Shown here in pieces: positions 3,524 to 57,086 of a stretch of DNA of 57,086 nucleotides. Under the pieces are notes generated by a model. The model saw only the letters and a program-made list of their open reading frames with translations, was not told where the DNA came from and ran no database searches. Where the stretch lies: positions 1-57,086 of the IMG/VR virus record IMGVR_UViG_3300030328_001660, one strand, 5' to 3'. Within the stretch, counting starts at the first letter, position 1, and the number at the start of each line of letters is the position of its first letter. The translations under genes and the position numbers were made by a program. The DNA comes from a virus (taxonomy: Duplodnaviria > Caudoviricetes).

Positions 3524-3532
3524 GAGATCCTA

Positions 3533-29887: not shown

Positions 29888-29937
29888 ATACCCAACTAGG
29901 GTATTGACATTTTAACTGTTAAGGAGGGTTAACAGAT

Positions 29938-30198: not shown

Positions 30199-30779
30199 TA
30201 TTTGCTACACTTTCTTTATGTCTTTTTCAAGAAGTATGCCATCCCCCTTTAATTAGTTTTGGTGTACATAGAGAAGCTTTAGATGATGGATGGACGCACT
30301 CAACTGGTGGTATGGCTTCGGACACTAGAGTAATTGAAGTGGACTATTACGATAACAGAGCTATAGCAGAAACCGAGTTTACATCGCAAGGTCAAGTAAC
30401 ACTGACAAATACTTCACATGGGTTCATGCCGGAAAACAGAAAAATAAAATATCGCCATAAGGTACAAGTCCCTAGAGGGGACTATGTGATATCACAATCG
30501 CATAGCCCTCACGATTATGAAGTGTGTGCAGCTAACGGTGAGATAACTTTCTATACCGAAAAGATCCTACCCCGACAAGATCCCTATGTACAAGAGTGGG
30601 CGTATACCGTGGAGATACAACCTTGGGGTGATCTAAATAGTGATGGTCGAATTAATGGAGGAGACTTAGGATTGTTATTCGGTGACTGGGGACTACCCGG
30701 AGATGGGGACTTGAATGAGGATGGAATTACCGATGGAGAGGATCTCGCTATTCTACTAGAGAATTGGAATGATTATTAA
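30195..30779 (+). CDS. Protein with C-terminal dockerin/EF-hand-like duplicated repeat
   Basis: 'GDLNSDGRINGGDLGLLFGDWG' and 'GDLNEDGITDGEDLAILLENW'. Short hydrophobic N-terminus. Confidence 0.75.
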   Translation: MIFATLSLCLFQEVCHPPLISFGVHREALDDGWTHSTGGMASDTRVIEVDYYDNRAIAETEFTSQGQVTLTNTSHGFMPENRKIKYRHKVQVPRGDYVISQSHSPHDYEVCAANGEITFYTEKILPRQDPYVQEWAYTVEIQPWGDLNSDGRINGGDLGLLFGDWGLPGDGDLNEDGITDGEDLAILLENWNDY

Positions 30780-30873
30780 AATCGACTAGGGGGTCGAAAA
30801 TTTATCTGGGGGCATGTACAGTAAATGGGAATCCTGTTTTCCCCCTTAACCCCTTGTTCTTGAAAGGAACAAA

Positions 30874-31212
30874 ATGAGTATTCTTATCTCAATCGTCTGG
30901 TCAATCTTTGTCATCGGAACCTTTGCCTTTGGACTGGCATGCCTCACGATCAACTTCTGGAACCGGCAGAGGGAAGAGCCGGGGGACATGAAGCAGGTCA
31001 TCTGCCAGAAGGAGTTGCCGAACGGGCTGATCGTCTGGACCAGAGAATGGAGGAACATGAACTCACCGGAGTTCGATGAGGTGTTCACGGAGCTTGACAG
31101 CAACCACGAAAACCCCACCTACATCGTACATCACAACCAAGGCAGACACGCCAACATCAAGGTACTCAACAATGCATACTCTCGACCCGAGCTTCCCTGC
31201 AAGCCTGAGTGA
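30874..31212 (+). CDS. Hypothetical membrane protein, first gene of GC-rich early region
   Basis: GAAAGGA RBS, N-terminal TM helix, GC3-rich codons. Confidence 0.7.
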   Translation: MSILISIVWSIFVIGTFAFGLACLTINFWNRQREEPGDMKQVICQKELPNGLIVWTREWRNMNSPEFDEVFTELDSNHENPTYIVHHNQGRHANIKVLNNAYSRPELPCKPE

Positions 31213-31319
31213 CACACACACCGCCTCAGCTCCCTTCACTGGGGGCATGAGGCATTCCGCAGGACTAACTTCGTCAACGTGACGAACTAACCCTGCTTAC
31301 TCTAATGGAGGGTATCCTT

Positions 31320-31709
31320 ATGGATGCTACCATTACCGTACATCGGCGTAGCATTGGTACGCCGATTGAGTTCAGGACGAACGTCCTGTTCGCGTCTTCT
31401 TTCGAGAAGGCACTTCAGGATGGCAACGGCTCGGAGCTGGAGCAGATGATCGACAAGATCAAGAAGCTTCACGACTACGTGCCGGAGACCGAAGACAGCT
31501 TCGTCTCGGAACCTCATGTTTTCAACACGATTCGTGCTGACGGACATCGATGGTACTGTGTCGCTCGTACCTGCGTCACGGCTCAGGAGTTTGAGAGTCT
31601 CAAGAGGAATCGTCTGGAAATCATGTGGGTTCCCGAACCCTACCAGACCCTCACCGACTGGACCTTGGACATCAAGGAAGCGTCTAGGGATATCAAGCTG
31701 TTCGTCTGA
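31320..31709 (+). CDS. Hypothetical early protein
   Basis: GGAGG RBS before ATG 31320 (track start 31305). Strongly GC3-biased codons. Flanked by hairpins. Confidence 0.7.
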   Translation: MDATITVHRRSIGTPIEFRTNVLFASSFEKALQDGNGSELEQMIDKIKKLHDYVPETEDSFVSEPHVFNTIRADGHRWYCVARTCVTAQEFESLKRNRLEIMWVPEPYQTLTDWTLDIKEASRDIKLFV

Positions 31710-31723
31710 ACTCACACGGAACC

Positions 31724-31916
31724 CCTCACTGTTCCCGAAAGGGAATGGTGAGGATTAGGAGCGGCTAGCCTCAAGGACGAGGTTAACCCGCAAAGAGATA
31801 CGTACTCCTCTACGCAAGGATGTGTAGTGTGGTGGAGTGAGTGTGATTCTCCCGGCCTAGTTGTATTGTTGGGCGGGAGCTAGCCTTACTGTTCCTTAAC
31901 AGGAGTAGTGAGGATT
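31724..31916 (+). repeat. Two related 13-bp hairpins (processing sites or terminators)
   Basis: CCTCACTGTTCCC-GAAA-GGGAATGGTGAGG-ATT (31724) and CCTTACTGTTCCT-TAAC-AGGAGTAGTGAGG-ATT (31884). Confidence 0.7.
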
Positions 31917-31983
31917 GGGTCTAGCGATGTGCTAGGCTCGGTCACTAATGAGTTGCCTCTTAGAGGCAGAAAGGTTCTTCAAA

Positions 31984-33807
31984 ATGAAGATCCAACTCAG
32001 TAACGGCCAGAAGGATGCAATCCGTGCAAAGACGGATTCCATTCTCCGGTCACGCTTGCGGGGATGGCTCCGCAGGTGGGGAACGTCAGAAACGGCGGTC
32101 CAACGGATGATGCAGGAAATGATCGTAGGATTGTGGATGACCTTCCACAAGGATCTCCCGAATGATCTGGTCCCCTTCAAGAAGAAGGGTGTTCAGGTCG
32201 GAGACATGACCGAGATCAGTGGTCTGCAACTGATGTCCATTCAGGCTTTCAACGTCCTTGACGACAAGCTTGCGTGGGTTGAGGCCAACAAGCATCGTTG
32301 GATTCCGGAGAAGCGTGTCATCTGGCACGCGGAACCCCCGAAGCTCGATGGGGTTTACACCCCGCGAGTTGCACGGAGAGTCGATCTCGAGGTCGGCTCC
32401 ATGAGGTCTGAGTTCATGCAGACCGTCACCAACACCCGGTATGTGGTGAACCAAGATACCCTTCGGGACATCTTGGCCTACCGGGAATCGCTGTCCAGAG
32501 AGAAGGCGAACAGCATCATGTACGAACGTGAGGCTGATGTCTTCGGTGATCTGGAGTTCAACAGCACGGGTGACATGGCTCTCTTCGAGTCTCTCTCTGG
32601 GGTCTCTGACCCCGGCTGCATCGCCTTGGATTCCCAAGACGAGGCAGGGCGTTTCTACGCCGAGTTCGGTCCCATGTACAGTCGCTTTCTCAGGGCTGCG
32701 ATGGGTCACGAATGGGAGGCACTCACCGAAGAGGGTGCGTTCATGTTTCGGAAGTACTTGGCCGACAAGTACGGAAAGAAGGATGACCTCGAGTTGGATA
32801 ACTGGTCCAAGAGCATCGATGAGAACGGGTTGCAAGTTCTCGTCAACCACCACAAGAAGGGTGCGGACATGCTGTCGGATGCCCGTGGTTGGAAGGAGTT
32901 CCGCCAGACCGGAGGCACTTGCCTCCCGGCGAAGCGGGACTACATCGCCCAAGGACTGGGAATCATCGCTGCCTTGCAGGGAGCGTCTTCGCATCGCCAA
33001 TTGGTGGACACGGCTCACCCCGACCACCGATCGGCACATGCCATCTTCTCGGATGACCTGAGAGCTATGTTCAGGTCGTTGCGTGGCTACACCGCCGAGG
33101 AACTCAAGCCCATCTCCAAGAACTGCTTGCTGCCCGGCCCCTATGGGGGCGGAAAGCTCGCCATTGCGGCGAAGCAGTCCGACATGGAATGGGATGCCGT
33201 TGCCGGTGATTGGAACTACGGCGAAGATGGTGATCGCGTTCCGGACATCCATCCCTTGTTGGAGAGCCTTCTCCCTCAGGGTGACGTTCGGGCGAAGATG
33301 GAAGCTCTTGTCAAAGAGAGCAGCAAGATGGCGAGACTCATGCACAAGCGGTTCCCCTTCCTGAAGCCCTTTCAGGAGAGGGTCGTCGCTAATTGGCACT
33401 CACACTCGGCACGGGGCGAATGTCCCATCTTCGAGTACAAGTCTGGGTATCGCCTTCCGGCGGCACCCATTCGGATGAACAAGAAGTGGACCACTCACAT
33501 CAGGGGCTACAAGGTCCTTGCTGATGGTTCCAAGATTCGTCCGGGTGTCACCGTCTTCAAGCATGATCTTAACGAAGACGGGACGGACTGGATGGCGAAG
33601 AGTGCGTTCAGGCGTGACTCTGATATCGTCTGCCACACCGGCTTGATGCTGGCAGAAGCAGGCGTGAAGAATCAGGATCACGTTCACGACATGCACCGAG
33701 TGGGATGGAACCACGTCACCCTCCTCGACCGGGTTTCGGTTGAGGCGTACAACGTGGTCTGTGGGACCGACCTTCCCGCAGATGCCAAGCTTCTCGCATC
33801 TGACTAA
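31984..33807 (+). CDS. Divergent, short single-subunit (T7/Pol A fold) RNA-polymerase-like protein
   Basis: Motifs in the correct order: DEAGRFY (nt 32638), motif A 'DYIAQGLGIIAAL' (32938), motif B 'KPISKNCLLPGPYGG' (33106), 'AFRRDSDIV', motif C 'VHDMH' (33682). GAAAGG RBS before ATG 31984 (track start 31948). Confidence 0.75.
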   Translation: MKIQLSNGQKDAIRAKTDSILRSRLRGWLRRWGTSETAVQRMMQEMIVGLWMTFHKDLPNDLVPFKKKGVQVGDMTEISGLQLMSIQAFNVLDDKLAWVEANKHRWIPEKRVIWHAEPPKLDGVYTPRVARRVDLEVGSMRSEFMQTVTNTRYVVNQDTLRDILAYRESLSREKANSIMYEREADVFGDLEFNSTGDMALFESLSGVSDPGCIALDSQDEAGRFYAEFGPMYSRFLRAAMGHEWEALTEEGAFMFRKYLADKYGKKDDLELDNWSKSIDENGLQVLVNHHKKGADMLSDARGWKEFRQTGGTCLPAKRDYIAQGLGIIAALQGASSHRQLVDTAHPDHRSAHAIFSDDLRAMFRSLRGYTAEELKPISKNCLLPGPYGGGKLAIAAKQSDMEWDAVAGDWNYGEDGDRVPDIHPLLESLLPQGDVRAKMEALVKESSKMARLMHKRFPFLKPFQERVVANWHSHSARGECPIFEYKSGYRLPAAPIRMNKKWTTHIRGYKVLADGSKIRPGVTVFKHDLNEDGTDWMAKSAFRRDSDIVCHTGLMLAEAGVKNQDHVHDMHRVGWNHVTLLDRVSVEAYNVVCGTDLPADAKLLASD

Positions 33808-33829
33808 TCCTTCTGGCTAACCAACCGAT

Positions 33830-33862
33830 CTCCCCTGCCCTAACGGGTGGGGGAGTTTCTTT
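33830..33862 (+). terminator. Intrinsic terminator after the second RNAP gene
   Basis: CTCCCCTGCCC-TAAC-GGGTGGGGGAG followed by TTTCTTT. Confidence 0.85.
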
Positions 33863-34195
33863 CACAACGGGGGATACGCTAAATCGATTGCCTTAGCAAT
33901 CAGAGTGTGTATTATCTTTGTCCCGGTCCGGGTACGTCCCCGCGTATGTATGGTGGTGGTGATCCGGACGACCCCTGCGCTCGGCCCCTCAAAGCCGGGG
34001 CCGAGAAACTCTAAGCAGTGAACGCCGAGCACTAGGCGTTAAAAGTGGGTGTAATAGTAGGTTGTATCCACATACCTAGGTTTGTCCCTAGGTTTTGAGA
34101 TTTTTATGGGTGTGTGGGTGGGTAGTCACATACCTGACTGATAACTAGGCTTGTACACCTTAGGTCAGTCCTTAGGTCTACCCCGGAGATGATCA

Positions 34196-34450
34196 ATGAC
34201 CACCATTATCATCAAGAAGAAGAAGGCCCGCAAGGGTCCACCTGCGGACGATGCTCCTGTTACTGAGAAGGTTGCATACTGGGACGAGCGTTTCAGGCAG
34301 TGCTATGGCACTGAAGTTGCAGTCTCAGAAGGCACAGCCAAGGAGCAGCAGCGTTGGCCGGACCACAAGCGAGCCGAGATCGACCAGATGTGCAAGGAAT
34401 TGGACATCCAACACCACGATGAGGATGGAAACGTACTCACGCTGGCGTAG
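34196..34450 (+). CDS. Hypothetical protein
   Basis: GGAG RBS, 84 aa, Lys-rich N-terminus, GC3-biased codons. Confidence 0.65.
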   Translation: MTTIIIKKKKARKGPPADDAPVTEKVAYWDERFRQCYGTEVAVSEGTAKEQQRWPDHKRAEIDQMCKELDIQHHDEDGNVLTLA

Positions 34451-34560
34451 GGTAACCTGCGTCATCGAGGGTCTGCTCTTTTCTCACCAAGCCCTGAGAG
34501 GCTCTCACGTAGCTTCTCAGGGCATTCGCTCTTTCTCTCGGGCCTCGGTATACCTATGGT

Positions 34561-34815
34561 ATGCCGGGGCCTTTACACAAGCACAGGGAGCCACACATGT
34601 GGGAATTCTTTTGTAATGCAGAAGGCGAAGTCTGGGTGGCATACTGTCACGATACTTACACAGCACACGTTTTGCTGGATGAGCGTCGTGGGTTGTATGA
34701 CCCTGACCCAAAGATCCCTCAGCATGTCATCGAGGCATGGAGGACTTGCCGTGAACTCGGCTACTCCTCGGGTCTGCAAACGGAGAACTGCGGAGGTGCG
34801 TTCATCAATGATTGA
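34561..34815 (+). CDS. Hypothetical protein
   Basis: 84-aa ORF whose stop overlaps the start of the sigma-like gene. The true start may be the internal Met after GGGAG. Confidence 0.5.
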   Translation: MPGPLHKHREPHMWEFFCNAEGEVWVAYCHDTYTAHVLLDERRGLYDPDPKIPQHVIEAWRTCRELGYSSGLQTENCGGAFIND

Positions 34816-35293
34816 AGAGAACGATCTCCGGATTGCGAGGTGGAGATTATCCCGTAAGGGTTGTCCTCAGGATTTACTGGAGGACTATATCAACACTGCC
34901 GTTGTTTGTTTGTTAGAACAAGAGGAAGTAATTGAGGGTAAGCTAGGCATAGGTAATTGGTTGGGTCGTGTGGCCTTTTACAAATGGGTAGATGACCGCA
35001 AGAAACTATCCTTCAGGAAAACCAGAGGTTGGCCGAAGGACAATGAGGGAGAAGACTCAGAATTTCAGGGGGATCACATCCCTCCAGATCAGTTAGTGTT
35101 AGACAGGGAAGAAGCTGACCTTCAGGAGAAACATGTGATGAATCTCATCCATGAAGGGACGGTCATGCAGCAAGACGTAGCACATCTTGTGGCACGCTCT
35201 CCTCTGAAGAAGGGCAGAAAGGTTGCAGCAATAGTTAGAGGTGTCTCTTACCAAGCTACTGCTGTCGCCCTGAATTCCTACCGCAAAAGATAA
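34808..35293 (+). CDS. ECF (sigma-70 group 4)-like sigma factor
   Basis: GGAGGT RBS. Region 2-like 'DLLEDYINTAVVCLL...NWLGRVAFYKWVDDRKK' and region 4-like 'QQDVAHLV...KVAAIVRGVSYQATAVALNSYRKR'. 161 aa from ATG 34808. Confidence 0.6.
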   Translation: MIEENDLRIARWRLSRKGCPQDLLEDYINTAVVCLLEQEEVIEGKLGIGNWLGRVAFYKWVDDRKKLSFRKTRGWPKDNEGEDSEFQGDHIPPDQLVLDREEADLQEKHVMNLIHEGTVMQQDVAHLVARSPLKKGRKVAAIVRGVSYQATAVALNSYRKR

Positions 35294-35929
35294 CAAATAT
35301 TTCCACTCTAGATCAAGGGTGGAAGGGGTAGCCTAACAAGACTTTATCTTAGGTCTAAGGCATCACTCAAAGGGGTAGCACCTTGTACCAGAGCCAATCG
35401 GTGAGGTACAGCCCGACGCAGGGCTACGAGTGGGTACGAAGTAGAGTATCAACGAACTTGATAAGATCTCGAAAAGTTCTGGGTAACACAAGAAGTCCCA
35501 GCCCCACACTAAACACGCGGCTAGGTCATCACCGGAGACTATGGGTCACGCCATAGTTCTCCTATGGTGGTGATCTCAGCTAGAACGCACCATCACCTGA
35601 GCATGTGGTGTAATAAACTGCTTCACTTGTCTATCGCATTGCTCTGGACAAATGACTCGTTTGGGCGAGCCTAAATAGTTCTTAAGCCCAAAGCGGGCTA
35701 CAGCTTAGACAATACTCTGGTTGTAGCCGTGAAATCCTTCTAGTGTTAGTAGCGTACCCGTGAAAGCACCCAAAGGTGTACATGAAACATACTGGGAAGT
35801 ATCGGTTCAAGTCCGATCATCGGAGATATCCGACACAGATCCTAGGTAGGGCCTGAGAAGGGCCTGTAGTGTAATCGGCAGCACGCCCGTATGTTCTTGT
35901 GCTTAATAACCCAACATGAAAGGTAAGTA
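35294..35929 (+). ncRNA. Candidate large structured non-coding RNA region
   Basis: No + strand ORF of 60 aa or more over ~640 nt. Continuous stem-loops, an H-type pseudoknot and tRNA-like arms. Confidence 0.45.
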
Positions 35930-36373
35930 ATGGGAAACATCTTTGATGATCTCAATGCAGACGATCAGTTTATTGAAGCTGATGTAAGAGATGAGGTTAC
36001 TAACGAACCCATCAATACTGACATTGACTTTTGTAGTTTGGTTGTTAGTGAATACGCCAATAAAGTATCTCTCCATATTGAAAACGATATGGGTATACCT
36101 GATCCAGTTGGCTTGTTCCTTCCAGAAAACAAGGTTGATATCCAAGAAGCGATCAATCAAACGCTTAAGGATCACCCCGGCATTTGGATTAGGTGGGAAC
36201 ACGGCTCGTTTAAGGGTGTTCACTTCCAAATCAGACGAGGCAATGGGGTAAAGGAACGATTCTTTAGGACTGACACTAAGGGTGCATTTGCTCGGCGTAA
36301 AATCTACGCCCAGAGAAATCCTGATAGTGTTGTGAGTTTCACTATGTTCCCTGAAGAATCACAAACATTTTGA
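35930..36373 (+). CDS. Hypothetical protein
   Basis: GAAAGGT RBS, 147 aa. Confidence 0.7.
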   Translation: MGNIFDDLNADDQFIEADVRDEVTNEPINTDIDFCSLVVSEYANKVSLHIENDMGIPDPVGLFLPENKVDIQEAINQTLKDHPGIWIRWEHGSFKGVHFQIRRGNGVKERFFRTDTKGAFARRKIYAQRNPDSVVSFTMFPEESQTF

Positions 36374-36465
36374 CTATAGTGCTAACCGTGACAGCAAGGT
36401 AAGTGTGAAGAGGCACGGATGAGGTCGGCTGGAACCAAGAGTAGAAATGCCAGTCATCTATTATT

Positions 36466-36660
36466 ATGAAAGAACTACCACTAAGAATACTGTCATTGCT
36501 TATTGTATTAGTTTTGTGGGCAGCATTTGTCTGCTTCTCATGGCTGGTACTAAGCTTGCTTTTTTACGCACAACAATCGTGCGGAACTTGGACACTGGCT
36601 ATTATTATAGGCAGCGTATATACTTTATCAATCATCTTTAAGATGTGGAAGGAACACTAA
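36466..36660 (+). CDS. Small membrane protein
   Basis: Two hydrophobic segments; TAATG coupling to the next gene. Confidence 0.55.
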   Translation: MKELPLRILSLLIVLVLWAAFVCFSWLVLSLLFYAQQSCGTWTLAIIIGSVYTLSIIFKMWKEH

Positions 36661-36944
36661 TGGTTAAAGAATTTATTCATAAAGGGAAGACAATTAAGGT
36701 CAACCCTAATGTAAGGAACTGTTATGAGGATCCTTCTGGTCTTAATACTATTCAACGGCTGCACCTTAAGGGGGAGCTGGATGTATACGCACCCATCGTA
36801 GCATACGATGAACGCTGGTCAACAAAGATGAAGAAGAATGGGTACTGGGAAGACTTCGAGTCAGCCTCTCCTATTCCTAATACTAAGAGACGCAACGATC
36901 TTCCTCCTATTTATTTGCAATGGAAAGATGCTGCAAAGTCTTGA
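36660..36944 (+). CDS. Hypothetical protein
   Basis: GAAGGA RBS before ATG 36660. Confidence 0.6.
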   Translation: MVKEFIHKGKTIKVNPNVRNCYEDPSGLNTIQRLHLKGELDVYAPIVAYDERWSTKMKKNGYWEDFESASPIPNTKRRNDLPPIYLQWKDAAKS

Positions 36945-37079
36945 GTCAGTATTACAAGAAGCTAGCAAAAGTAGCTAAGGAAAAGAACTGGTCTCATCGT
37001 AAGCTCGGTGAGTTTATTAAAAAGAATAAGGGCAAACCGCCCTCAATTGCACTAAAGAATTTAGAAAAGGAATCTTAAT

Positions 37080-37607
37080 ATGGGTATGGATGTATCAGGG
37101 ATTAACCCTACTGTAGTTGGCACTGAACCTAAGTGGCCTGAGAACTTCCGAGATCTCTCGGACGCAGAGCAGGACGCATGGTACGAAGCCAAGAACAAGT
37201 TCTATGAGAACAACCCCGGCGTTTACTTTCGAGCAAACTGCTGGTCATGGCGACCTATCATGGAAGCCATGTGGGAAAGCGGAGCTTGTTACGAACTCGA
37301 AGATAAAGAATGGGAGCACATGTCCTTCAACGACGGGGCTGGTGCAAAGAATCAAGAAACTTGTGACCGAATGGTTTCCAAGCTTAAGATTTGGCTGAGT
37401 GAACAGCAATGGGACAACAATAACCAATGGACTCCCGCTGCTTTTGATACGGATGACATGCAGATTGATATGAACGGTACGTTTATTAATAAGGAAAAGG
37501 CACTGGAAGAAAACATTGCGACCAGATCGCCTTATTCTGTACACAAGGAACATCTTGAAGAGTGGATTACTTTCCTTGAACATTGCGGAGGATTTGAAGT
37601 ATGGTAG
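37080..37607 (+). CDS. Hypothetical phage protein
   Basis: AAAGGA RBS, 175 aa, 'PGVYFRANCWSWRPI...FLEHCGGFEVW'. Confidence 0.7.
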   Translation: MGMDVSGINPTVVGTEPKWPENFRDLSDAEQDAWYEAKNKFYENNPGVYFRANCWSWRPIMEAMWESGACYELEDKEWEHMSFNDGAGAKNQETCDRMVSKLKIWLSEQQWDNNNQWTPAAFDTDDMQIDMNGTFINKEKALEENIATRSPYSVHKEHLEEWITFLEHCGGFEVW

Positions 37608-37861
37608 AAGAAACAAAATATTGTCGTAGAGAATGTATCCGATTTCCTTCAGGGACTTATTACCTAGTGTCTCGGGTAGAACTACCCGGTACATACGACG
37701 ACTGGGAGACTATGATCTTCCCTGCAAATGAAAAGGGGGAAGTGATTAGCTGGCTAGAGGAGTACTGTCATCGTGGATACGAACCAATTATCGACACTGT
37801 TATCAAGTTCGCAGAAACAAGAGGACTTGAGCTTTCCGATGTGGAAGGTGACTTGGATTGA
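37601..37861 (+). CDS. Hypothetical protein
   Basis: GGAGG RBS, 86 aa. Confidence 0.6.
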   Translation: MVEETKYCRRECIRFPSGTYYLVSRVELPGTYDDWETMIFPANEKGEVISWLEEYCHRGYEPIIDTVIKFAETRGLELSDVEGDLD

Positions 37862-38081
37862 TGCCCAAACTTTGGGTGATTCAACTTGGTCTGATTTAGA
37901 AGAAATGAAGGAGGAAGCCTTGACAACCCCTCCTACTATTCATACAATAGGTTATGTATTGTGTAACTGCGATACTCACATCGCACTAACAGAAACAATT
38001 GGCCCAGAAGAATGTGGTCATGTAACTAAAATACCGAAAGGAATGATCGTTGAAGATTACGAACTGTCACCCAACGGATAA
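37839..38081 (+). CDS. Hypothetical phage protein (VxWxDA type)
   Basis: 'KVTWIDA...TIGYV...IPKGMI' pattern seen in small phage proteins. Start uncertain. Confidence 0.6.
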   Translation: MWKVTWIDAQTLGDSTWSDLEEMKEEALTTPPTIHTIGYVLCNCDTHIALTETIGPEECGHVTKIPKGMIVEDYELSPNG

Positions 38082-38451
38082 GTATAGGTATGAACTTAAG
38101 AGCACGCAGTATAGATACTCGGACGGAGACTATATCCTTACTGTTGAAGCTTGCGACGGAGATCTTGAAGTTGCCCATGAGTATGAAGATGAGAAAGTTT
38201 ACCTTGAGGAAAACAATATTGATTTCTGGGTAGGTGCTGTACTCTTTTGGTACGACGCTGACTTGCCAACGACCAAGTTCTTTGGCCCGCAGGTTGATGC
38301 AGTTGCACGGCTGTCACATTACTTGGGCTATGTCCCTGACGAAGAAACTATTAAGACTTACGCTGTTCCTAATAAAGAGGAGTACTATTCTTATAGTGAG
38401 ATGATTGCAAAGCTTGAAGAAGACAACCGAACCGAGGCAGTATATGATTAA
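38050..38451 (+). CDS. Hypothetical protein
   Basis: 133-aa acidic ORF with TTG start after AAAGGA. Confidence 0.55.
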   Translation: MKITNCHPTDKYRYELKSTQYRYSDGDYILTVEACDGDLEVAHEYEDEKVYLEENNIDFWVGAVLFWYDADLPTTKFFGPQVDAVARLSHYLGYVPDEETIKTYAVPNKEEYYSYSEMIAKLEEDNRTEAVYD

Positions 38452-39112
38452 GATTACAGATGGCTGGTCTGTTAATGAGATAGAACCAGTACAGTATGTT
38501 GATAAGATGGGTTCAGATCAAGAGGTATGTAATGCAGCTAGAGTTTCTTTCGATAAGAACGCTAGTAACTATACCGACGAAGAGAACACTAAGCTTATTA
38601 ATTATCTGCATAAGAATGATCATTGGTCTCCGTTCTCCCATTGTTATATGAAGTTTAGATTTAATGCTCCTATGTTTATTGCCCGCCAATTCCAGAAACA
38701 TGTTGTTGGTTTCGCTTGGAATGAAGTATCACGTAGGTATGTGAGCAATCCTCCTATGTTCTTTGTTCCTAAGTCTTGGCGTAAGCGTCCTCCTAATATG
38801 AAGCAGGGTTCTATTCTTAAGGGGCAAGTGCCTCTTAAAGGAGAGATACTAAACAATTATGTAGGCCAAATGCAAGAACATGCTAGAGATTACAAGCATA
38901 TGCTGGAACAAGGTATATGTCCTGAGCAAGCAAGAATGTGTATGCCTCAAAGTATGATGACGCAATGGATTTGGTCAGGTAGTGTTGCTGCTTGGGCTAG
39001 GTTTATTAACCTGAGGTCTGATAGCCACGCTCAAATTGAGTGCCATCAGTACGCAGCAGCTGTTAAGGTTTATCTTGAGTCGCACTTTCCTGAATGTGCG
39101 AAGGTTCTTTAA
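38444..39112 (+). CDS. thyX: Flavin-dependent thymidylate synthase
   Basis: 'NAARVSF', 'HWSPFSH', 'IARQFQKH', 'NEVSRRY', 'PEQARMCMP', 'LRSDSHAQIE'. Start at ATG 38444 after GAGG. Confidence 0.93.
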   Translation: MIKITDGWSVNEIEPVQYVDKMGSDQEVCNAARVSFDKNASNYTDEENTKLINYLHKNDHWSPFSHCYMKFRFNAPMFIARQFQKHVVGFAWNEVSRRYVSNPPMFFVPKSWRKRPPNMKQGSILKGQVPLKGEILNNYVGQMQEHARDYKHMLEQGICPEQARMCMPQSMMTQWIWSGSVAAWARFINLRSDSHAQIECHQYAAAVKVYLESHFPECAKVL

Positions 39113-39691
39113 ATGAAAATGAGAAAGTATGAGTTCCAATTAAGAAGTCTTTTAGAAATAGCTGACAAAATTAATTTAAATAGTAATAGTTCTATGGTTG
39201 AAGTAGGTTGCTACCGTGGCGAAAGCACAAGCATGTGGGCTTCGTTTAATGGTACAGTTTATGCTGTTGATTCTTGGAGAAAAGGGACCGCATTTAATAT
39301 TTGTGATCCCAAGGGATTGTGGCAACGACTAAAGTCTTCTTACCGACAAATCTCTATCAAAGATCTGCTTTGTATTAACTATAAGGTAGAGAAAGATTTT
39401 GATTTGATGGCTGAACAATATGATAACATCAAAAAAATTAAATTAAATAGTAAAGAAGCATCAGATATATTTGGAAAAGAAAGTGTAGACTTTGTTTATC
39501 TGGATGCGATGCACGACTACGACAACGTGAAGGCGGACATTAAAACTTGGCTGCCAAAGATTGTAAATGATGGATGGATAGGTGGTCACGACTATCACCA
39601 GTCTTGGCCCGGCGTAATAGAAGCTGTGGATGAGAAGTTTGGTAAGCCTGATTATTTATTTGAAGATACTAGTTGGTTAAAGAAACTTTAA
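39113..39691 (+). CDS. Class I SAM-dependent methyltransferase (Methyltransf_24-like)
   Basis: 'VEVGCYRGEST', 'YAVDSW', 'DFVYLDAMHDYDNVKADI', 'GWIGGHDY'. Confidence 0.85.
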   Translation: MKMRKYEFQLRSLLEIADKINLNSNSSMVEVGCYRGESTSMWASFNGTVYAVDSWRKGTAFNICDPKGLWQRLKSSYRQISIKDLLCINYKVEKDFDLMAEQYDNIKKIKLNSKEASDIFGKESVDFVYLDAMHDYDNVKADIKTWLPKIVNDGWIGGHDYHQSWPGVIEAVDEKFGKPDYLFEDTSWLKKL

Positions 39692-39697
39692 TACTTA

Positions 39698-39770
39698 GCC
39701 TCTATAGCTCAGTCGGTAGAGCATCGGCCTTTTAAGCCGCTGGTCGCTGGTTCGAGTCCAGCTGGAGGCA
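39698..39770 (+). tRNA. tRNA-Lys(UUU)
   Basis: Acceptor GCCTCTA/TGGAGGC, loop CT-TTT-AA, T-loop TTCGAGT. No encoded CCA. Confidence 0.95.
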
Positions 39771-39772
39771 TC

Positions 39773-39846
39773 GGGCCGGTAGCTTAGCGGTCTAAAGCTA
39801 TCGACTCATAATCGATTGATCGTCGGTTCAAATCCGACCCGGCCCA
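39773..39846 (+). tRNA. tRNA(CAU), probably Ile2 (lysidine type), otherwise elongator Met
   Basis: Acceptor GGGCCGG/CCGGCCC, anticodon arm ATCGA-CTCATAA-TCGAT. Lacks the initiator 3xG-C pairs. Confidence 0.9.
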
Positions 39847-39860
39847 TTGGAGAAAATAAA

Positions 39861-40097
39861 ATGCCTAAGTTTGAATACACTTTTGATATCGAAGAAACGA
39901 CTATCAGACGATGTGAAATTGAAGTAGAAGCGGAGACATTAGAAGCAGCAATGGCTGCCGTAGAAGAGCAAGGTCCTTGGGATTGGGAAGTCCACTATGG
40001 CAAGGAACTTTGGTACGAATGCGATGAAACCTTGGACAATGATCCAAAGAATCCTGAACACTGGGATAAAATATATGAGGAACTTACTGATGTATGA
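39861..40097 (+). CDS. Small acidic hypothetical protein
   Basis: GGAG RBS before ATG 39861; the track start lies within a tRNA. Confidence 0.65.
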   Translation: MPKFEYTFDIEETTIRRCEIEVEAETLEAAMAAVEEQGPWDWEVHYGKELWYECDETLDNDPKNPEHWDKIYEELTDV

Positions 40098-40251
40098 TGA
40101 ATCTTGGGAGGATGATTGGTCTGTTGACATGGCAATTGAAGAATGGCAAATAGAAAAGGATAGAAGGCAGGAAGCTAATTATAATAACCACGCTTGGCGG
40201 AGGGGATATCGTGTGCCAGAAGAAGGAACAGATAATATTCGAGAAGCTTGA
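40090..40251 (+). CDS. Small hypothetical protein
   Basis: GAGGA RBS, overlaps the previous stop. Confidence 0.45.
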   Translation: MYDESWEDDWSVDMAIEEWQIEKDRRQEANYNNHAWRRGYRVPEEGTDNIREA

Positions 40252-40294
40252 AGCTGAAATGAGAACAAACGACGAACATCAAAAGGATGACGCT

Positions 40295-40368
40295 GCCCCG
40301 GTAGCTCAGCTGGATAGAGCAGCTGACTTCTAATCAGCAGGTCGCAGGTTCGAGTCCTGCTCGGGGTG
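40295..40368 (+). tRNA. tRNA-Arg(UCU)
   Basis: Acceptor GCCCCGG/TCGGGGT, anticodon arm GCTGA-CTTCTAA-TCAGC, T arm GCAGG-TTCGAGT-CCTGC. Confidence 0.95.
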
Positions 40369-40370
40369 TT

Positions 40371-40730
40371 ATGAAACTAGAAAAATATATTGATATTGCA
40401 ATGCCTATGGCAGTACAGAGTACAAGGAAAAAGAAACATGTATCTTTAATTATCAGAAAAGGAGAGCTTGTTTCTTTTGGTGTGAACAAAATGAAGACAC
40501 ACCCCCTTGCAAAACGGTACGGTTACAGGTATAATGAAGTACATTCAGAGCTTGATGCTCTATTGAAATACAAAGGACCTAAGGATAAGTTGGTGCTTTT
40601 AAACTTTAGGTTTAATCGGTTTGGTGAAATGCGGATGAGTAAGCCGTGCAAATTATGTATGCCGTGGTGTTCTGCGGTGTTTGATAAGATCATTTATTCT
40701 ACTACCAATGGAATGGTGACTGAACATTAG
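40371..40730 (+). CDS. Zn-dependent cytidine/deoxycytidylate deaminase-fold protein
   Basis: 'VHSELDAL' (HxE) and 'SKPCKLC' (PCxxC). Confidence 0.8.
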   Translation: MKLEKYIDIAMPMAVQSTRKKKHVSLIIRKGELVSFGVNKMKTHPLAKRYGYRYNEVHSELDALLKYKGPKDKLVLLNFRFNRFGEMRMSKPCKLCMPWCSAVFDKIIYSTTNGMVTEH

Positions 40731-40813
40731 GCTCTGTGGCGGAATTGGCATACGCATTAGACTTAAAATCTAACGCCCGAAAGGGATTGAGGGTTCGAGT
40801 CCCTCCGGAGCTA
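40730..40813 (+). tRNA. tRNA-Leu(UAA)
   Basis: Acceptor GGCTCTG/CGGAGCT, anticodon arm TTAGA-CTTAAAA-TCTAA, long variable arm CCC-GAAA-GGG. Confidence 0.95.
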
Positions 40814-41181: not shown

Positions 41182-41372
41182 TGGCTCACGGAAAAAAGCG
41201 AAGGCAAGAGGTATCTAAAAAAGATGAAAGGCCCAAGCGAAAACAAACTGAAGAGAAAGGTAGGCAAACAATTAAAGCTAGGTTACGTAATCTAGACAAT
41301 GATAATTGGGAGATGGTGTCAGAGAAATTCATGAAAGGAAACAAACATGAGTCACGAAATGATGGAGAATGA
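41181..41372 (+). CDS. Small basic hypothetical protein
   Basis: TAATG coupling at 41181, Lys/Arg-rich. Confidence 0.5.
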   Translation: MAHGKKRRQEVSKKDERPKRKQTEEKGRQTIKARLRNLDNDNWEMVSEKFMKGNKHESRNDGE

Positions 41373-42330
41373 TTCGGCAGTTTACTTTAAGAACCCAGCA
41401 TGGCATGGGCTTGGTAAGACTGTTGAGAACGCAATTAATGTAGACGAAGCAATGAAGATGGCTGAGCTTAACTGGGAAGTTGATAAGTGGCCGCTGTTTA
41501 CACTTGATGGTGTCCAAGCACACGATTACCGTGGTGTAATGCGTACTGATACAAGAGAAATTATTGGTGTAGTTTCTCCTCGGTATCAGCCGGTTCAAAA
41601 CTGGGAGGCATTCAACCTCGCTAAGTACTTTGGTAGTGACGTTAAGGTTGAGTCAGCTGGCTCTATTCGTAATGGTCGCAATGTTTATCTTCTTCTTAGG
41701 GGAGAGACATTTGACGCAGTGCCAAACGATACGGTACATAAGTACATGGCTTTGTTCTGGGGCCACGATGGTACTGCTTCTCTAACTGTACTGCCTACTT
41801 CTGTTCGGGTTGTTTGCAAGAACACCTTGGCTATGGTCATGGGTCAGGCTAGAGGTACAAGCAACAAGATTTCCATTAGTCATAGTGGAGACATCATGGA
41901 GAAGATGCGTGCTGCTGAAGAAGCAGTAAAGAAGTTCAAGGAAACTGGTAAGATGTTCGAGGAAAAGGTCAAGTACATGGCTAGTTCCAATCCACAAAGA
42001 GAACACATTAGCAGGTTCTTCTTGAATGTGTACGCCCAACTCAATAAGGTTGCGGTTGTACATAACCCAACTTCCGAAAAGGAAGAAGAGATTTACACAA
42101 AGGCTTTGACCACTGTAAGCAAGTGGACTGAGACCTTTGAGCTTGAGTCTCAAGAACTGGGTAACTGGAGTTACTGGACCGCTGCTAACGCAGTAACCAA
42201 TGATATCCAGCATCGAGTTGCTGCAAGAGGAAAGAAAAAGTCCCCCGCTTCTTCCGCTTACAGCAATCTAATCGGGCAGAACGCTACCAATACCAATAAG
42301 GTATTTGATATCGCAATGGCCGAAGTCTGA
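41347..42330 (+). CDS. DUF932-family phage/plasmid protein
   Basis: 'PAWHGLG', 'GVVSPRYQPVQN', 'ESAGSIRNG', 'HDGT', 'VRVVCKNTL' family motifs. Confidence 0.85.
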   Translation: MSHEMMENDSAVYFKNPAWHGLGKTVENAINVDEAMKMAELNWEVDKWPLFTLDGVQAHDYRGVMRTDTREIIGVVSPRYQPVQNWEAFNLAKYFGSDVKVESAGSIRNGRNVYLLLRGETFDAVPNDTVHKYMALFWGHDGTASLTVLPTSVRVVCKNTLAMVMGQARGTSNKISISHSGDIMEKMRAAEEAVKKFKETGKMFEEKVKYMASSNPQREHISRFFLNVYAQLNKVAVVHNPTSEKEEEIYTKALTTVSKWTETFELESQELGNWSYWTAANAVTNDIQHRVAARGKKKSPASSAYSNLIGQNATNTNKVFDIAMAEV

Positions 42331-47609: not shown

Positions 47610-49328
47610 ATGGCAAAGATGATTTCGAGAGAACAGTGTCCCTCCTGTGCTAAACGCGGGAGGGATACTTCTTGTGACAACCTAGTAGTATTCGAGAATA
47701 ACACTTCTCATTGTTTTAGTTGCGGATATCATAAAGGAGATTCAAATATGCAGGAAACACGCAGCGTAAGTTCAGCTAATACTTCCCCCAACTTTGTTGA
47801 CGGTAAGGTAGAAGCTTTGGGAGATAGAAAGCTAACCGAAAAGACGGCAAGGTTTTATAATTACCAAGTAATTCATAAGTCAGGAGAAAGAGTAGAGATT
47901 GCTTCGTTTTATAGGGAAGGTTCGGTTGTCGGACAAAAACTTCGTGGCCCTAACAAAGCTTTTCAATGGAGAGGAGAGGCCAGTAAGTCTCAACTCTGGG
48001 GCCAACATCTTTGGAAATCCAAGGGAGGCAAGCGTCTTGTTATTACTGAAGGCGAGATTGACTGTATGTCTGTGGCTCAGCTACTTGATTGTAAGTGGCC
48101 GGTCGTATCCTTACCAAACGGTGCAGCGGGTGCTGCTCGATCCATTAAGGATAACCTTGAATTTGTTACTAGCTATGATGAAGTTGTTCTTATGTTTGAT
48201 ATGGATGAAGCAGGACAAGATGCAGTTAAGGCCGTAGCTGATCTACTTCCTCCGGGCAAATGCAAGGTTGCTACGCTTCCTTACAAGGACCCAAACGAGT
48301 GTCTTCTAAAGGGTCAGGGCAAGGCTATTGTCCAAGCCATGTGGGAAGCCACGCTTTATTCACCAGACGAAATTGTCCATGTCTCTAATATCCAGAACGA
48401 TAATAACATGGATGACGTTCGTGTCTACCCATTCCCGTTTGATGGACTATCAGAGTTCCTTCTCGGGCAAAGGTCTGGCGAGATTACCTTATGGGCCTCA
48501 GGTACTGGGTCAGGTAAGTCTACCCTTCTTCGGGAAGTTATTTACCACCACCTAGACGAAGGCCGAAGCGTTGGTGCTATTATGCTTGAGGAATCTCCTC
48601 AGGAAACTATCGATGACATCGTTTCTCTTATGCTTAACAAGCCAGTAAGGGCAATCAGGGCAAAGAAGATGATGAATAAACTCCGAGAAGAATTAGGTAA
48701 GGAACCTATTGACATCTCTGTTATTGATGACCTTACTGATGAGGAGTATGCAGAAGCTAGAAAGCAACTGGCTGGCACAAACTTATACATTTATGATCAC
48801 CTTGGAAACAGCGGACTTCAAAATCTGTGTGCTCGTATTGAGTTCATGGCCGTATCTCTCGGTGTAGATGTTATCGTGCTTGACCACATTACCGCCGCAG
48901 CAGCTGGCCTACTGACTACGGACAATGACTTTGAAGGAGGTAGCTCAGAAAGACTTCTTATTGACAATATTATGAAGGAACTCAGAGCACTCGTATCTAG
49001 AACAGGAGTTAGAATTGATGTCGTATCTCAACTTAAGAAGACGCAAAAGGCTTACGAAGAAGGAGACCGAATCACTCTACAAGACCTTCGTGGTTCTGGC
49101 TCTCTCGCTTCAGTGCCTAACACTGTTATTGCTTTGGAACGAGATAGACAAAATCCAGACAATCGTATTGCGAACACTACAATTGTTAGAGTCCTAAAGA
49201 ACAGGCTTACTGGCAAGTCTGGTATTGCTTCTTGTCTATACTATGACCACGGAACTGGCCGTATGCAAGAGCTTGACTTCGGGATTGATGACGAAGGTAA
49301 TGTCATAAACGATTGGGATGAAGTATGA
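47610..49328 (+). CDS. DNA primase-helicase (T7 gp4-like)
   Basis: Zn finger CPSC...CFSC, TOPRIM 'ITEGEIDC' and 'FDMDEAG', Walker A 'GTGSGKST', 'LDHIT', 'DLRGSGSL', 'LKNRLTG'. Confidence 0.96.
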   Translation: MAKMISREQCPSCAKRGRDTSCDNLVVFENNTSHCFSCGYHKGDSNMQETRSVSSANTSPNFVDGKVEALGDRKLTEKTARFYNYQVIHKSGERVEIASFYREGSVVGQKLRGPNKAFQWRGEASKSQLWGQHLWKSKGGKRLVITEGEIDCMSVAQLLDCKWPVVSLPNGAAGAARSIKDNLEFVTSYDEVVLMFDMDEAGQDAVKAVADLLPPGKCKVATLPYKDPNECLLKGQGKAIVQAMWEATLYSPDEIVHVSNIQNDNNMDDVRVYPFPFDGLSEFLLGQRSGEITLWASGTGSGKSTLLREVIYHHLDEGRSVGAIMLEESPQETIDDIVSLMLNKPVRAIRAKKMMNKLREELGKEPIDISVIDDLTDEEYAEARKQLAGTNLYIYDHLGNSGLQNLCARIEFMAVSLGVDVIVLDHITAAAAGLLTTDNDFEGGSSERLLIDNIMKELRALVSRTGVRIDVVSQLKKTQKAYEEGDRITLQDLRGSGSLASVPNTVIALERDRQNPDNRIANTTIVRVLKNRLTGKSGIASCLYYDHGTGRMQELDFGIDDEGNVINDWDEV

Positions 49329-49969
49329 TTGCAGTAGTGGGCGGTGGCCGTTGCGGTAGTAGCCTAATGATGCAGACTCTGAGCCTGCTGGGTGTCCCCT
49401 TATTGGGGAACCCGGCGGCTCGGACGACGCATCAACTGTGGCAAGCTTACCAAGAAAACTCCGGGGAAATTTTAAATGATCTCCCGATGTCTAAGAATCC
49501 CAAAGGCTACTATGAAATATCATTAAATAAAATAGATGAAATCGTTACCGGGAAAGATAAGAATCTTTATGAAGGTGAAGCCGTTAAGTTTACAACCCCA
49601 GATATCATCGACATTGATCCTGAAAAAATTGAATCAGTTATTTATTGCCGACGCAGAAACATTAGGAAAGCCGCAAAAAGCATGGCCTTACTTGCTCGCC
49701 AAGATTATGAGTACGGTAGAGACAACGACCTAAAGTTTTGTTTCTCTTCTATATACCCTGCGTTCAAAATAAAAGATTGGGAGAAACATATGATCTTATT
49801 TAACGAACGAGTAACAGACTGGCTAAGCAAAATCAAAAAACCCTTTGTTGAAATTTGGTTTGAGGATATGACAAGAAATCCCGAACCAATTATACAACAC
49901 CTTGGGGACTTTTTAAATTTAGATAACCCCGACATATCAGAAGCCCTGAAGAACGTGGAAAAAAGATGA
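49325..49969 (+). CDS. Sulfotransferase-like P-loop protein
   Basis: PAPS-binding-like 'GGGRCGSSLMMQTL', 'NPKGYYE' and 'FEDMTRNPEPIIQHLGDFL'. Confidence 0.7.
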   Translation: MIAVVGGGRCGSSLMMQTLSLLGVPLLGNPAARTTHQLWQAYQENSGEILNDLPMSKNPKGYYEISLNKIDEIVTGKDKNLYEGEAVKFTTPDIIDIDPEKIESVIYCRRRNIRKAAKSMALLARQDYEYGRDNDLKFCFSSIYPAFKIKDWEKHMILFNERVTDWLSKIKKPFVEIWFEDMTRNPEPIIQHLGDFLNLDNPDISEALKNVEKR

Positions 49970-57020: not shown

Positions 57021-57086
57021 TATGACTGGTCAGTTTAACGCAGCCGATAACAAACAAAGCAGAGGTATTTCTTCTGGCCTAGCCCG

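Follow-up and report, generated by a model that had tools for sequence, protein, structure and literature searches.

A GC-rich gene block encoding a predicted second RNA polymerase avoids the codons read by the tRNAs of a marine T7-like podovirus

Introduction

Classical work on phage T4 reportedly found that early and late genes differ in codon usage and that the phage tRNAs serve late genes. Differences in codon usage between early and late phage genes are described by Mioduser et al. 2017 (PMC5683454), and in the account of Ross and Doore 2025 (PMC12482277) the tRNAs of Shigella phage Sf14 fit its late and structural genes. The T4-like cyanomyoviruses are presented in Limor-Waisberg et al. 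2011 (PMC3152331) as phages with low-GC genomes that infect GC-rich hosts and carry tRNAs for AT-rich codons. Both the compensation of host codon bias by phage tRNAs and the existence of early/late codon differences are established. Here we describe a 57,086-base stretch of DNA (the window), which is the whole of one virus record (IMG/VR IMGVR_UViG_3300030328_001660), from a phage that occurs in marine metagenome runs. It carries four tRNA genes and, several kilobases upstream of them, a block of four GC-rich genes that is nearly free of the codons that these tRNAs are expected to read. One of the four genes encodes a predicted second RNA polymerase (RNAP), here called RNAP2.

The likeness to the T4-like cyanomyoviruses, as these are presented in PMC3152331, is one of mismatch compensation, an AT-rich marine phage having tRNAs for codons little used by GC-rich hosts. 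The nearest isolates of our phage are too distant to name a host (identities of up to 27% for the RNAP and 41% for the primase), and a primase profile search of genome contigs gave no relative. The same source describes T7-like cyanopodoviruses as adjusting their GC content to the host, whereas our phage, although T7-like, uses the tRNA strategy instead. Unlike the T4-like cyanomyoviruses, it also has one internal module in host-type codons. In the systems of PMC5683454 and PMC12482277, as described there, timing was measured; in our phage it is deduced. The contrast is far larger here than in those descriptions (GC content at third codon positions, GC3, of 0.71 against about 0.33; 9.5 against 105 cognate codons per 1000), is confined to one 3.6-kb module, and co-varies with gain and loss of tRNAs across the clade.

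A second point of comparison is phage N4, whose early genes are described as encoding a small T7-like polymerase, RNAPII (PMC4496689). Our phage resembles N4 in encoding a small extra polymerase apart from the main one, which by analogy suggests a transcription cascade. It differs in that RNAPII of N4 is a heterodimer and RNAP2 of our clade a single chain of 590-710 amino acids (aa). In addition, our phage has a canonical 818-aa T7-type RNAP, and no virion RNAP domain was detected in its 4764-aa protein. The T7-type (Autographiviridae-like) character is seen in genes on one strand, the RNAP, primase-helicase, family A DNA polymerase, exonuclease, tail tube and nozzle, a T7-type terminase and a terminator after the capsid gene. 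The clade departs from T7-type podoviruses in having a giant open reading frame (ORF; 4200-5600 aa), two RNAPs and tRNAs.

Results

A block of four genes avoids the codons read by the phage tRNAs

The four tRNAs that the first-pass annotation had placed between positions 39,698 and 40,813 are all present: ARAGORN called four of four, and the Rfam tRNA model (RF00005) scored them at 57.6-73.7 bits against a cut-off of 29 (Table 1). Their cognate codons are common in the phage, at 34.3 (AAA), 27.3 (TTA), 24.2 (AGA) and 13.0 (ATA) per 1000 codons in the 37 genes (15,771 codons) that we took as the bulk of the genome. Genes were taken as the longest non-overlapping ORFs on the + strand (n = 51), on which all long ORFs lie, and were picked without a gene caller, so that a few short ORFs may be spurious.

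A single GC island interrupts the window, reaching 0.54-0.57 at 31-35 kb against about 0.40 for the genome. The four genes of the block lie in it (30,874-34,450; 945 codons), with GC3 values of 0.66-0.74 and the order GC3 > GC1 > GC2, where all other ORFs that we kept have GC3 of 0.27-0.51. In the block, AAA makes up 2 of 60 lysine codons, against 541 of 1041 (0.52) in the bulk (Fisher p = 1e-15). The corresponding fractions are 6/65 against 381/831 (0.46) for AGA among arginine codons (p = 1e-9), 1/78 against 430/1286 (0.33) for TTA among leucine codons (p = 4e-12), and 0/49 against 205/936 (0.22) for ATA among isoleucine codons (p = 1e-5). The first-pass annotation had described these genes as using mostly AAG, CTC or CTG, ATC and CGN. 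This is borne out for lysine (AAG 0.97), isoleucine (ATC 0.76) and leucine (CTC, CTG and TTG); arginine is not written in CGN only, since AGG takes 0.22.

Ranked by the drop per 1000 codons from bulk to block, the four cognate codons come first, second, sixth and ninth among the 14 A-ending codons. Within the class made up of ATA and the A-ending codons of split boxes (AAA, GAA, CAA, TTA, AGA, ATA), the four with a phage tRNA reach at most 0.09 of their family in the block, whereas GAA and CAA, for which the phage brings no tRNA, persist there at 0.38 and 0.31; the class was picked after seeing the data, and the chance of finding exactly those four of the six is 1 in 15. Similar fractions are found in related podoviruses that are GC-rich as a whole, both for the four codons (AAA 0.04-0.12, AGA 0.04-0.17, TTA 0-0.04, ATA 0.02-0.05) and for GAA (0.17-0.34) and CAA (0.17-0.26). 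The relative synonymous codon usage of the block correlates with theirs (Spearman 0.54-0.77) and inversely with that of the phage's own bulk genes (-0.46). Based on both comparisons, the block is written like a GC-rich genome.

The bias is concentrated at third codon positions. GC3 (0.71) is far above the GC content of the block's intergenic DNA (about 0.53), and GC1 and GC2 are like those of the rest of the genome. A is also rarer than T at third positions (A3 0.10, T3 0.19), an imbalance that the intergenic DNA of the block, with A and T about equal, does not share. Because NNT codons share tRNAs with NNC codons by wobble pairing, a shortage of A relative to T fits selection at the level of tRNAs.

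The block is authentic and conserved

The block was recovered from two studies. A 15,530-nt contig from run X1 spans positions 28,500-39,304, and a 7359-nt contig from run X2, of an independent study, spans 29,157-36,515 with 5 differences. Both junctions of the block are bridged in this way, which rules out an assembly chimera.

We found 397 relatives of the primase in IMG/VR, fetched 80 of them as loci (L-numbers) and retrieved whole records for 12 (G1-G12; G13 is a further related record). A raised-GC3 block with an ORF of 590-710 aa follows the giant ORF in G2, G4, G5, G6, G8 and G11, and is also found at L014. The GC3 of the ORF at the RNAP2 position, with that of the giant ORF after the stroke, is 0.81/0.22 in G4, 0.67/0.34 in G5, 0.58/0.31 in G2, 0.56/0.30 in G6, 0.49/0.30 in G11 and 0.45/0.27 in G8; at L014 it is 0.70, the giant ORF lying outside the contig. 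In G4, the block genes have the four codons at 3-8 per 1000 and GC3 of 0.69-0.81, against 21 per 1000 and 0.36 in the capsid-position gene, and the ortholog of the 134-aa block protein is 88.8% identical with a GC3 of 0.69. The RNAP2 ORFs of the relatives are 19-63% identical to that of the window or undetectable by blastp. Synonymous sites are saturated at such identities, and the codon bias of the block must therefore be under maintenance. A recent import is ruled out by the presence of the block at the same place in lineages that are so far diverged.

tRNA carriage and the codon purge change together across relatives

The tRNA set varies within the clade. The window and G1 carry Lys(UUU), CAU, Arg(UCU) and Leu(UAA) tRNAs; G4 carries the same with an additional Ile(UAU), which adjoins the CAU tRNA (all at 2478-4335 of the oriented G4 record); G2, G3, G5, G6 and G8 have CAU, Arg and Leu; G11 and G12 have Arg and Leu; and G7 and G9 have none. 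The Lys tRNA is limited to the window, G1 and G4, and the Arg and Leu tRNAs were each found in 8 of the 12 related records scanned (G1-G12).

For nine genomes the block could be set against the tRNA set; we excluded G1, G3 and G10, whose contigs do not include the block, G12, which belongs to the lineage of G11, and the GC-rich outgroup G13. In these nine, which are related to each other and of which only two (G7 and G9) lack tRNAs, tRNA number correlates with the GC3 of RNAP2 (rho 0.91) and inversely with its use of the four codons (rho -0.87), and the giant ORF uses them at 107-141 per 1000 throughout. The two tRNA-less genomes write RNAP2 with AAA at 34/78 and ATA at 30/69, against 46/387 and 18/338 in the seven that bear tRNAs. 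The association also holds for single codons: AAA takes 2/107 in the blocks of Lys-tRNA carriers and 44/280 in those of carriers of other tRNAs only (p = 4e-5), and ATA takes 10/271 in carriers of the CAU tRNA and 8/67 in G11, whose only tRNAs are those for Arg and Leu (p = 0.013).

Three genes outside the block behave similarly. We compared 10 tRNA-bearing with 7 tRNA-less lineages, a small and related sample picked by hand from the window and the 80 loci, after setting aside near-duplicates, loci with too little sequence 5' of the primase for tRNAs to be excluded, loci that were GC-rich or distant (L057-L062, L070, L075-L094) and the fragment L055. For G10 and L038, only 6.3-6.8 kb upstream of the primase are available, and a tRNA cluster placed upstream as in the window is possible there. 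Median use of the four codons in tRNA-bearing and tRNA-less lineages was 42 and 87 per 1000 in the primase (p = 0.001), 22 and 62 in the 175-aa ORF (p = 0.001, no overlap) and 24 and 58 in the DUF932 gene (p = 0.008), and did not differ in the canonical RNAP (111 and 124, p = 0.087). Fragment L055, with three tRNAs, agrees with the trend (primase 16, 175-aa ORF 17 per 1000). On the primase tree the presence or absence of tRNAs requires 6 changes, of which well-supported branches force at least 4, and the sister contrasts G8/G9 and G11/(G10, L037, L025) run in the expected direction. Judged from these sequence comparisons, the tRNA set and the codon partition are likely to be linked in function.

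The block encodes a predicted second RNA polymerase

We identify the 619-aa protein of the block as a strongly diverged second single-subunit RNA polymerase, as predicted from a profile match to N4 RNAPII, a PF00940 match in G9, blastp matches of G8 and G9, and profile-profile alignments. The protein itself stays below the PF00940 cut-off and has no Pfam family at E <= 0.01 and no PHROG. Only three protein clusters were found for it in a large protein database, and neither the DNA nor the proteins of the block had a match among phage isolates. A profile built from four homologs gave a single match among solved structures, chain 6dt7_B of N4 RNAPII (E = 1e-3). This alignment spans a D...GL stretch and an HD motif, which may correspond to motifs A and C, with D307 and H580-D581 invariant in the 4 sequences. 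By hhalign, eight RNAP2 sequences of the window's type align with nine canonical RNAPs (probability 96.8%, E = 2.7e-10, 432 columns) and with the RNAP2 of G8, G9 and G7 (98.1%). The G9 gene at the RNAP2 position passes PF00940 at 169.8 bits, and the ORFs at that position in G8 and G9 have 25% blastp identity to canonical RNAP. An AlphaFold2 model made from a 4-row alignment was unusable (mean pLDDT 36.3).

RNAP2 is a hot spot of diversity. Between the window and G4 it is 35% identical, compared with 53-89% for the flanking genes and 80-91% for core genes. It is 63% identical to its counterpart at L014 and undetectable by blastp in G5, G6, G7, G8, G9 and G11, where neighbouring core genes are 50-90% identical. 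A hairpin with a T-run stands directly 3' of the gene and marks RNAP2 as a discrete unit (Table 1), and similar hairpins, read by eye, follow RNAP2 in G4, G5, G6, G2 and G11. The hairpin is 92% identical to another at positions 89-114 (+ strand), after the capsid-position gene. We considered the twin hairpins as a conserved pair and rejected this, their likeness being found in the window and G4 only and not in more distant relatives. A limited literature search found no description of two single-subunit RNAPs in one phage, and its matches, judged by title and opening of the abstract, were works on N4 and N4-like phages, an RNAP screening paper and unrelated plant papers.

Identity of the CAU tRNA

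The first-pass annotation had counted ATA among the codons served by the phage on condition that the CAU tRNA is a lysidine-type tRNA-Ile2. By its sequence the tRNA probably is of this type. Initiator tRNAs are marked by an unpaired position 1 (with 72) and three G-C pairs at the foot of the anticodon stem. The acceptor stem here (GGGCCGG/CCGGCCC) is fully paired, and the tRNA is therefore not an initiator; its anticodon stem (AUCGA/UCGAU) has two G-C pairs. ARAGORN labels it Met, to which no weight can be given since the program labels E. coli ileX Met as well. All 12 of the best E. coli matches listed are annotated as tRNA-Ile, and the two inspected have a CAT anticodon. These matches favour Ile2, whereas global identity is nearly tied (54/74 to ileX and 53/74 to metT, with alignment scores of 33 and 19). 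Among 40 phage records listed as matches, 21 label the tRNA Ile, 10 Met and 2 Lys, and 7 give no label. Positions C4:G69, C5:G68, U12:A23, C29:G41, A37 and A38 match what we take to be the E. coli determinants for TilS and IleRS.

The relatives point the same way. Use of ATA is lower in the blocks of CAU carriers, and the L052/L054 lineage has Leu(UAA), Arg(UCU) and Ile(UAU) tRNAs and no CAU tRNA, as if Ile(UAU) replaced it. We rejected the possibility that the tRNA-Ile(UAU) of G4 and of L052/L054 are point mutants of CAU tRNAs, the sequences being unrelated.

Codon use along the rest of the genome

Pooled over genes, the four codons occur at 9.5 per 1000 in the block, 51.5 in the nine genes between the block and the tRNAs, 86.7 in the 25 genes after the tRNAs and 105.4 in 12 structural genes. 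The first-pass annotation had codon use switch at the tRNA cluster. The boundary lies instead at about 34.5-35.3 kb, with 4.4 kb separating it from the tRNAs further downstream, and codon use is graded and gene-specific, from 11 to 131 per 1000 in single genes before the cluster and from 6 to 183 after it. Among the replication and transcription genes, the canonical RNAP has 131 per 1000 and the primase-helicase 40.

Genome content and surroundings of the tRNAs

The window is most of the genome, of about 65 kb, of a marine T7-like podovirus (Table 1); related complete records have 63-70 kb. It also encodes an exonuclease-like protein (Pfam). The record is incomplete. It begins in what appear to be the last 50 or so bases of a capsid-position gene, and the relatives carry a further 9 kb or so of genes, flanked by the orthologs of its last and first genes, that are absent from its ends (1-135 and 57,021-57,086); these 9 kb sit where T7-type phages have their portal and capsid genes. 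The listed TTG start of the tail-tube ORF, at position 68, precedes the terminator hairpin at 89-114, and its true start is therefore probably downstream of the hairpin. The giant ORF has no Pfam family, and its matches among solved structures were at chance level only. Its counterparts in relatives have 3803-5564 codons, lie at the same place and are 21-47% identical where detectable. A 1312-aa ORF directly 5' of it is likewise without a family.

Table 1. Features of the window, with positions counted from its first base; "four codons" are AAA, AGA, TTA and ATA
Feature	Position	Strand	Evidence or remark
Tail tube	68-802	+	Pfam
Nozzle	806-3523	+	Pfam
Tail fibre	3533-7456	+	Pfam
T7-type terminase	7787-9484	+	Pfam
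Giant ORF, 4764 aa	15593-29887	+	No family
Block gene 1, 112 aa, hydrophobic N-terminus	30874-31212	+	GC3 0.74; 2 of the four codons in 111; no Pfam or PHROG family
Block gene, 134 aa	31305-31709	+	GC3 0.68; none of the four codons
Block gene RNAP2 (predicted), 619 aa	31948-33807	+	GC3 0.71; four codons at 11 per 1000
Hairpin terminator closing the RNAP2 unit	33830-33855	+	11 pairs and T-run
Block gene, 84 aa	34196-34450	+	GC3 0.66; none of the four codons
Transitional gene, 245 aa	34556-35293	+	GC3 0.51; four codons at 86 per 1000
Non-coding gap, 636 nt	35294-35929	+	Between the block and the next genes; contigs of relatives break here
Nine genes from gap to tRNAs	35930-39691	+	AAA 26/84, AGA 16/52, TTA 10/77, ATA 11/74
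ThyX	38405-39112	+	Pfam
SAM-dependent methyltransferase domain protein	39113-39691	+	Pfam
tRNA-Lys(UUU), expected to read AAA (and AAG)	39698-39770	+	ARAGORN; Rfam 73.7 bits
CAU-anticodon tRNA	39773-39846	+	ARAGORN (label Met); Rfam 72.2 bits
tRNA-Arg(UCU), expected to read AGA	40294-40369	+	ARAGORN; Rfam 67.2 bits
ORF between Arg and Leu tRNAs, 119 aa, weakly dCMP-deaminase-like	40371-40730	+	PHROG 174, E = 3.5e-4
tRNA-Leu(UAA), expected to read TTA (and TTG)	40730-40813	+	ARAGORN; Rfam 57.6 bits
DUF932 gene	41347-42330	+	Pfam; four codons at 15 per 1000
Canonical T7-type RNA polymerase, 818 aa	42672-45128	+	PF00940, E = 3.4e-81
ORF, 175 aa	46210-46737	+	Four codons at 6 per 1000, lowest outside the block
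Primase-helicase	47610-49328	+	Pfam
Family A DNA polymerase	49966-51669	+	Pfam
Ribonucleotide reductase	53805-55721	+	Pfam

The 119-aa ORF within the tRNA cluster has orthologs at the same place in G1 and G4 (82-83% identical). Together with ThyX and the methyltransferase protein it forms a group of genes around the tRNAs that could be a nucleotide-modification or dTMP-supply module, and G4 has a second deaminase-like copy. A non-coding stretch of about 180 nt lies 5' of the capsid gene in relatives (G4 27,320-27,494, G5 55,460-55,646, G6 25,259-25,445 and G2 28,255-28,441 of the joined, oriented records). Its clade-conserved blocks, e.g., GGACTCC..GGAA.AATCC and AATAGTTTTA, suggest a structured leader or a promoter region; they are not in the window. 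Loci L057-L062, L070 and L075, with primases 54-63% identical, are GC-rich throughout (GC3 0.62-0.83), use the four codons at 2-8 per 1000 in their primase genes and have no tRNA in the stretches available. The wider phage group therefore spans AT-rich and GC-rich genomes.

The non-coding gap and the genome ends

The gap between the block and the next genes holds two structured elements. The first is a match to the Pistol ribozyme (RF02679) at 35,655-35,711 on the + strand, which covers the full model at 37.3 bits against a cut-off of 34.5 and lies 220 nt 5' of the next gene; the stretch is 75% conserved in G1 (positions 72-394 of its contig). The second is a hairpin at about 35,800-35,825 (+ strand) that resembles a tRNA T-arm, with a GGTTCAAGTCC loop. 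Stem differences between the window and G1 are paired changes, and a similar element is found at the start of G2. No Rfam family matched this hairpin at E <= 0.1, and it may belong to a structured RNA of larger extent within the gap.

The G2 record repeats its first 1006 bases near its end (68,878-69,778) at 95-99% identity with indels, including the T-arm-like element and a partial tRNA-like sequence, which could reflect a terminal repeat, variation between strains or a genuine duplication. No exact terminal overlap was found in the window, G1 or G2, and no similarity of start and end in G4, G6 or G10. Terminal overlaps of 141 nt (G5), 127 nt (G7) and 99 nt (G8) may be closure overlaps of circular assembly graphs, these lengths being typical k-mer sizes of assemblers. 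The order of genes on the circle (block, gap, small genes, tRNAs, RNAP) is compatible with either placement of the ends.

Discussion

A proposed start-up module in host-type codons

On the observed codon partition, its conservation and its co-variation with tRNA carriage we would build a combined explanation, towards which we lean with some reserve: the phage tRNAs decode the AT-rich bulk of the genome, and the block, in host-type codons, is made first. The four tRNAs would supply decoders for AAA, AGA, TTA and probably ATA, A-ending codons that only a dedicated tRNA reads and that we infer to be poorly served in a host with GC-rich codon habits. The module that follows the giant virion-protein gene consists of a membrane protein, the 134-aa protein, RNAP2, the terminator and the 84-aa protein. 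As it is written almost wholly in host-type codons, it would be translatable on host tRNAs alone, and it would most likely be made first, before phage tRNAs accumulate. RNAP2 might then help to start the later programme, in a manner like that of N4, where the early genes encode RNAPII.

Several findings weigh against this explanation. CTA, ACA, CCA and GTA are equally depleted in the block, and the phage has no tRNA for them. The intergenic DNA of the block is also GC-rich (0.52-0.56 in 4 stretches, 823 nt, against mostly 0.36-0.47 elsewhere), so that some of the excess in GC belongs to the region as a whole and does not reflect the choice of codons. G2, G5 and G6 lack tRNA-Lys, yet AAA stands at 0.40-0.49 in their giant genes. 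The genes between the block and the tRNAs in G4 have 44-132 of the four codons per 1000, the depletion there being only weak and variable in relatives, and the relatedness of the nine genomes compared has to be borne in mind as well. DUF932, the 175-aa ORF and the primase are poor in these codons though downstream of the tRNAs, and the methyltransferase directly 5' of the tRNAs is rich in them (131 per 1000); timing relative to the cluster is therefore not the whole story. Nor do the tRNAs have the fixed place just before the canonical RNAP that the first-pass annotation had given them. They are upstream of the RNAP in the window, G1, G4 and G11/G12, and downstream of it, before the primase, in G2, G3, G5, G6 and G8; even in the window, 1.86 kb and four ORFs separate the last tRNA from the start of the RNAP.

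The genome ends bear on timing too. In T7-type phages, the terminal repeat would be expected in an extended non-coding region at which assemblies break. Each of the contigs of G1, G2, G4, G6 and G10 has an end between the block and the genes that follow, and the 636-nt gap of the window is missing from the contig of its close relative G4. The block may therefore stand at the right end of the genome. With the terminal repeat in the gap, the block would be the last DNA to enter the cell under T7-type entry. No RNA run is among the runs listed for the phage, and promoters give no help. Matches of the sigma-70 type between 29.5 and 43 kb (18) equal the number expected from shuffled sequence (18.7) and are uninformative, no 14-mer (at most 3 mismatches) is common to at least 4 of the window's 17 intergenic stretches, and a repeat search over the whole window gave no promoter-like family. 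In addition, 16-mers taken from 5' of the capsid gene in G4, G5, G6, G2 and G7 recur only at scattered coding places. The temporal switch as such, with early genes on host tRNAs and later genes on phage tRNAs, accordingly remains a tentative reading of the sequence, and one that we hold to be slightly on the doubtful side.

Alternative explanations

Selection for translation efficiency could act independently of timing. Genes whose products are needed quickly or accurately would always be purged, the tRNAs would soften the cost for the bulk, and the block would be the most strongly selected module and not the earliest. Genes after the tRNAs are purged as well (DUF932, the 175-aa ORF and the primase) and are kept so in tRNA-bearing relatives, and the capsid-position gene is low in the four codons in all lineages, the tRNA-less ones included (G7 33, G9 18 and G10 36 per 1000). 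We nevertheless consider this alternative unlikely, since a polymerase and small proteins would not be expected to outdo the capsid in expression, yet they are more purged. Furthermore, only the block shifts from T-ending to C- and G-ending codons, and selection for efficiency leaves its raised intergenic GC unexplained.

That intergenic GC is what selection on DNA or transcription would predict. The block would have a host-like GC content because the host RNAP reads it, e.g., to avoid silencers of AT-rich DNA or restriction; its lack of A-ending codons would then be largely a side effect, and the tRNAs would answer the same GC-rich host independently. The strong terminator that closes the block as a discrete unit, and the fall of its GC3 towards the bulk value in tRNA-less lineages, are consistent with this. 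It has, however, no more than an outside chance. Third positions exceed the intergenic DNA by far in GC content while first and second positions do not depart from the rest of the genome, the shortage of A against T is found in coding but not in intergenic DNA of the block, and the purge follows, codon by codon, the identity of the tRNAs carried. No silencer and no host are known for this phage.

The tRNAs might also replace host tRNAs lost during infection, through anticodon nucleases or host shut-off, and be unrelated to the composition of the block. Both tRNA-Lys(UUU) and tRNA-Arg are known targets of anticodon nucleases. For Shigella phage Sf14, PMC12482277 favours an 'all-destructive' model. 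For our phage we hold this explanation to be very improbable, since it predicts neither the avoidance of just these codons in the block nor their codon-specific co-variation with tRNA carriage. The Lys tRNA of the window also speaks against it, since its anticodon loop, CUUUUAA, shows no unusual change and is presumably the ordinary one. Finally, the block as a recent GC-rich import, as the product of GC-biased repair at a recombination hot spot or as a chimera, with the match to the tRNAs a coincidence, would agree with the diversity of RNAP2 and with the lack of homologs among phage isolates (and only three clusters in the large protein database), but is barely credible given the bridged junctions, the raised GC3 at the same place in far-diverged lineages, and an A3/T3 asymmetry and tRNA co-variation that neither import nor biased repair would produce.

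Possible meaning for the clade

If the combined explanation of tRNA-dependent bulk and host-coded block is followed further, the clade may run a codon-partitioned start-up, in which a fast-evolving RNAP2 'boot' module is coded for the host and the rest of the genome is written in cheap, AT-rich, tRNA-dependent codons. Gain or loss of a tRNA would be mirrored by purge or relaxation of just that codon, the module would record the tRNA pool of the host, and acquisition of tRNAs would be a route between AT-rich and GC-rich hosts. We offer this extension as speculative, being possible but not what we would expect to hold in full.

Compared with earlier descriptions, three aspects are new. The partition within one genome is unusually sharp (GC3, 0.71 versus about 0.33; use of the four codons, 9.5 versus about 100 per 1000). 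Carriage of tRNAs and purge of their cognate codons change together in a comparative series, and no single genome could provide functional evidence of this strength. The purged module encodes a predicted second, fast-diverging RNA polymerase in a T7-like phage. Should the block truly be immediate-early, such modules could be used to read the codon preference of the host and would aid host prediction for uncultured phages, and the clade would be a good system for testing whether the gain of tRNAs enables host shifts.

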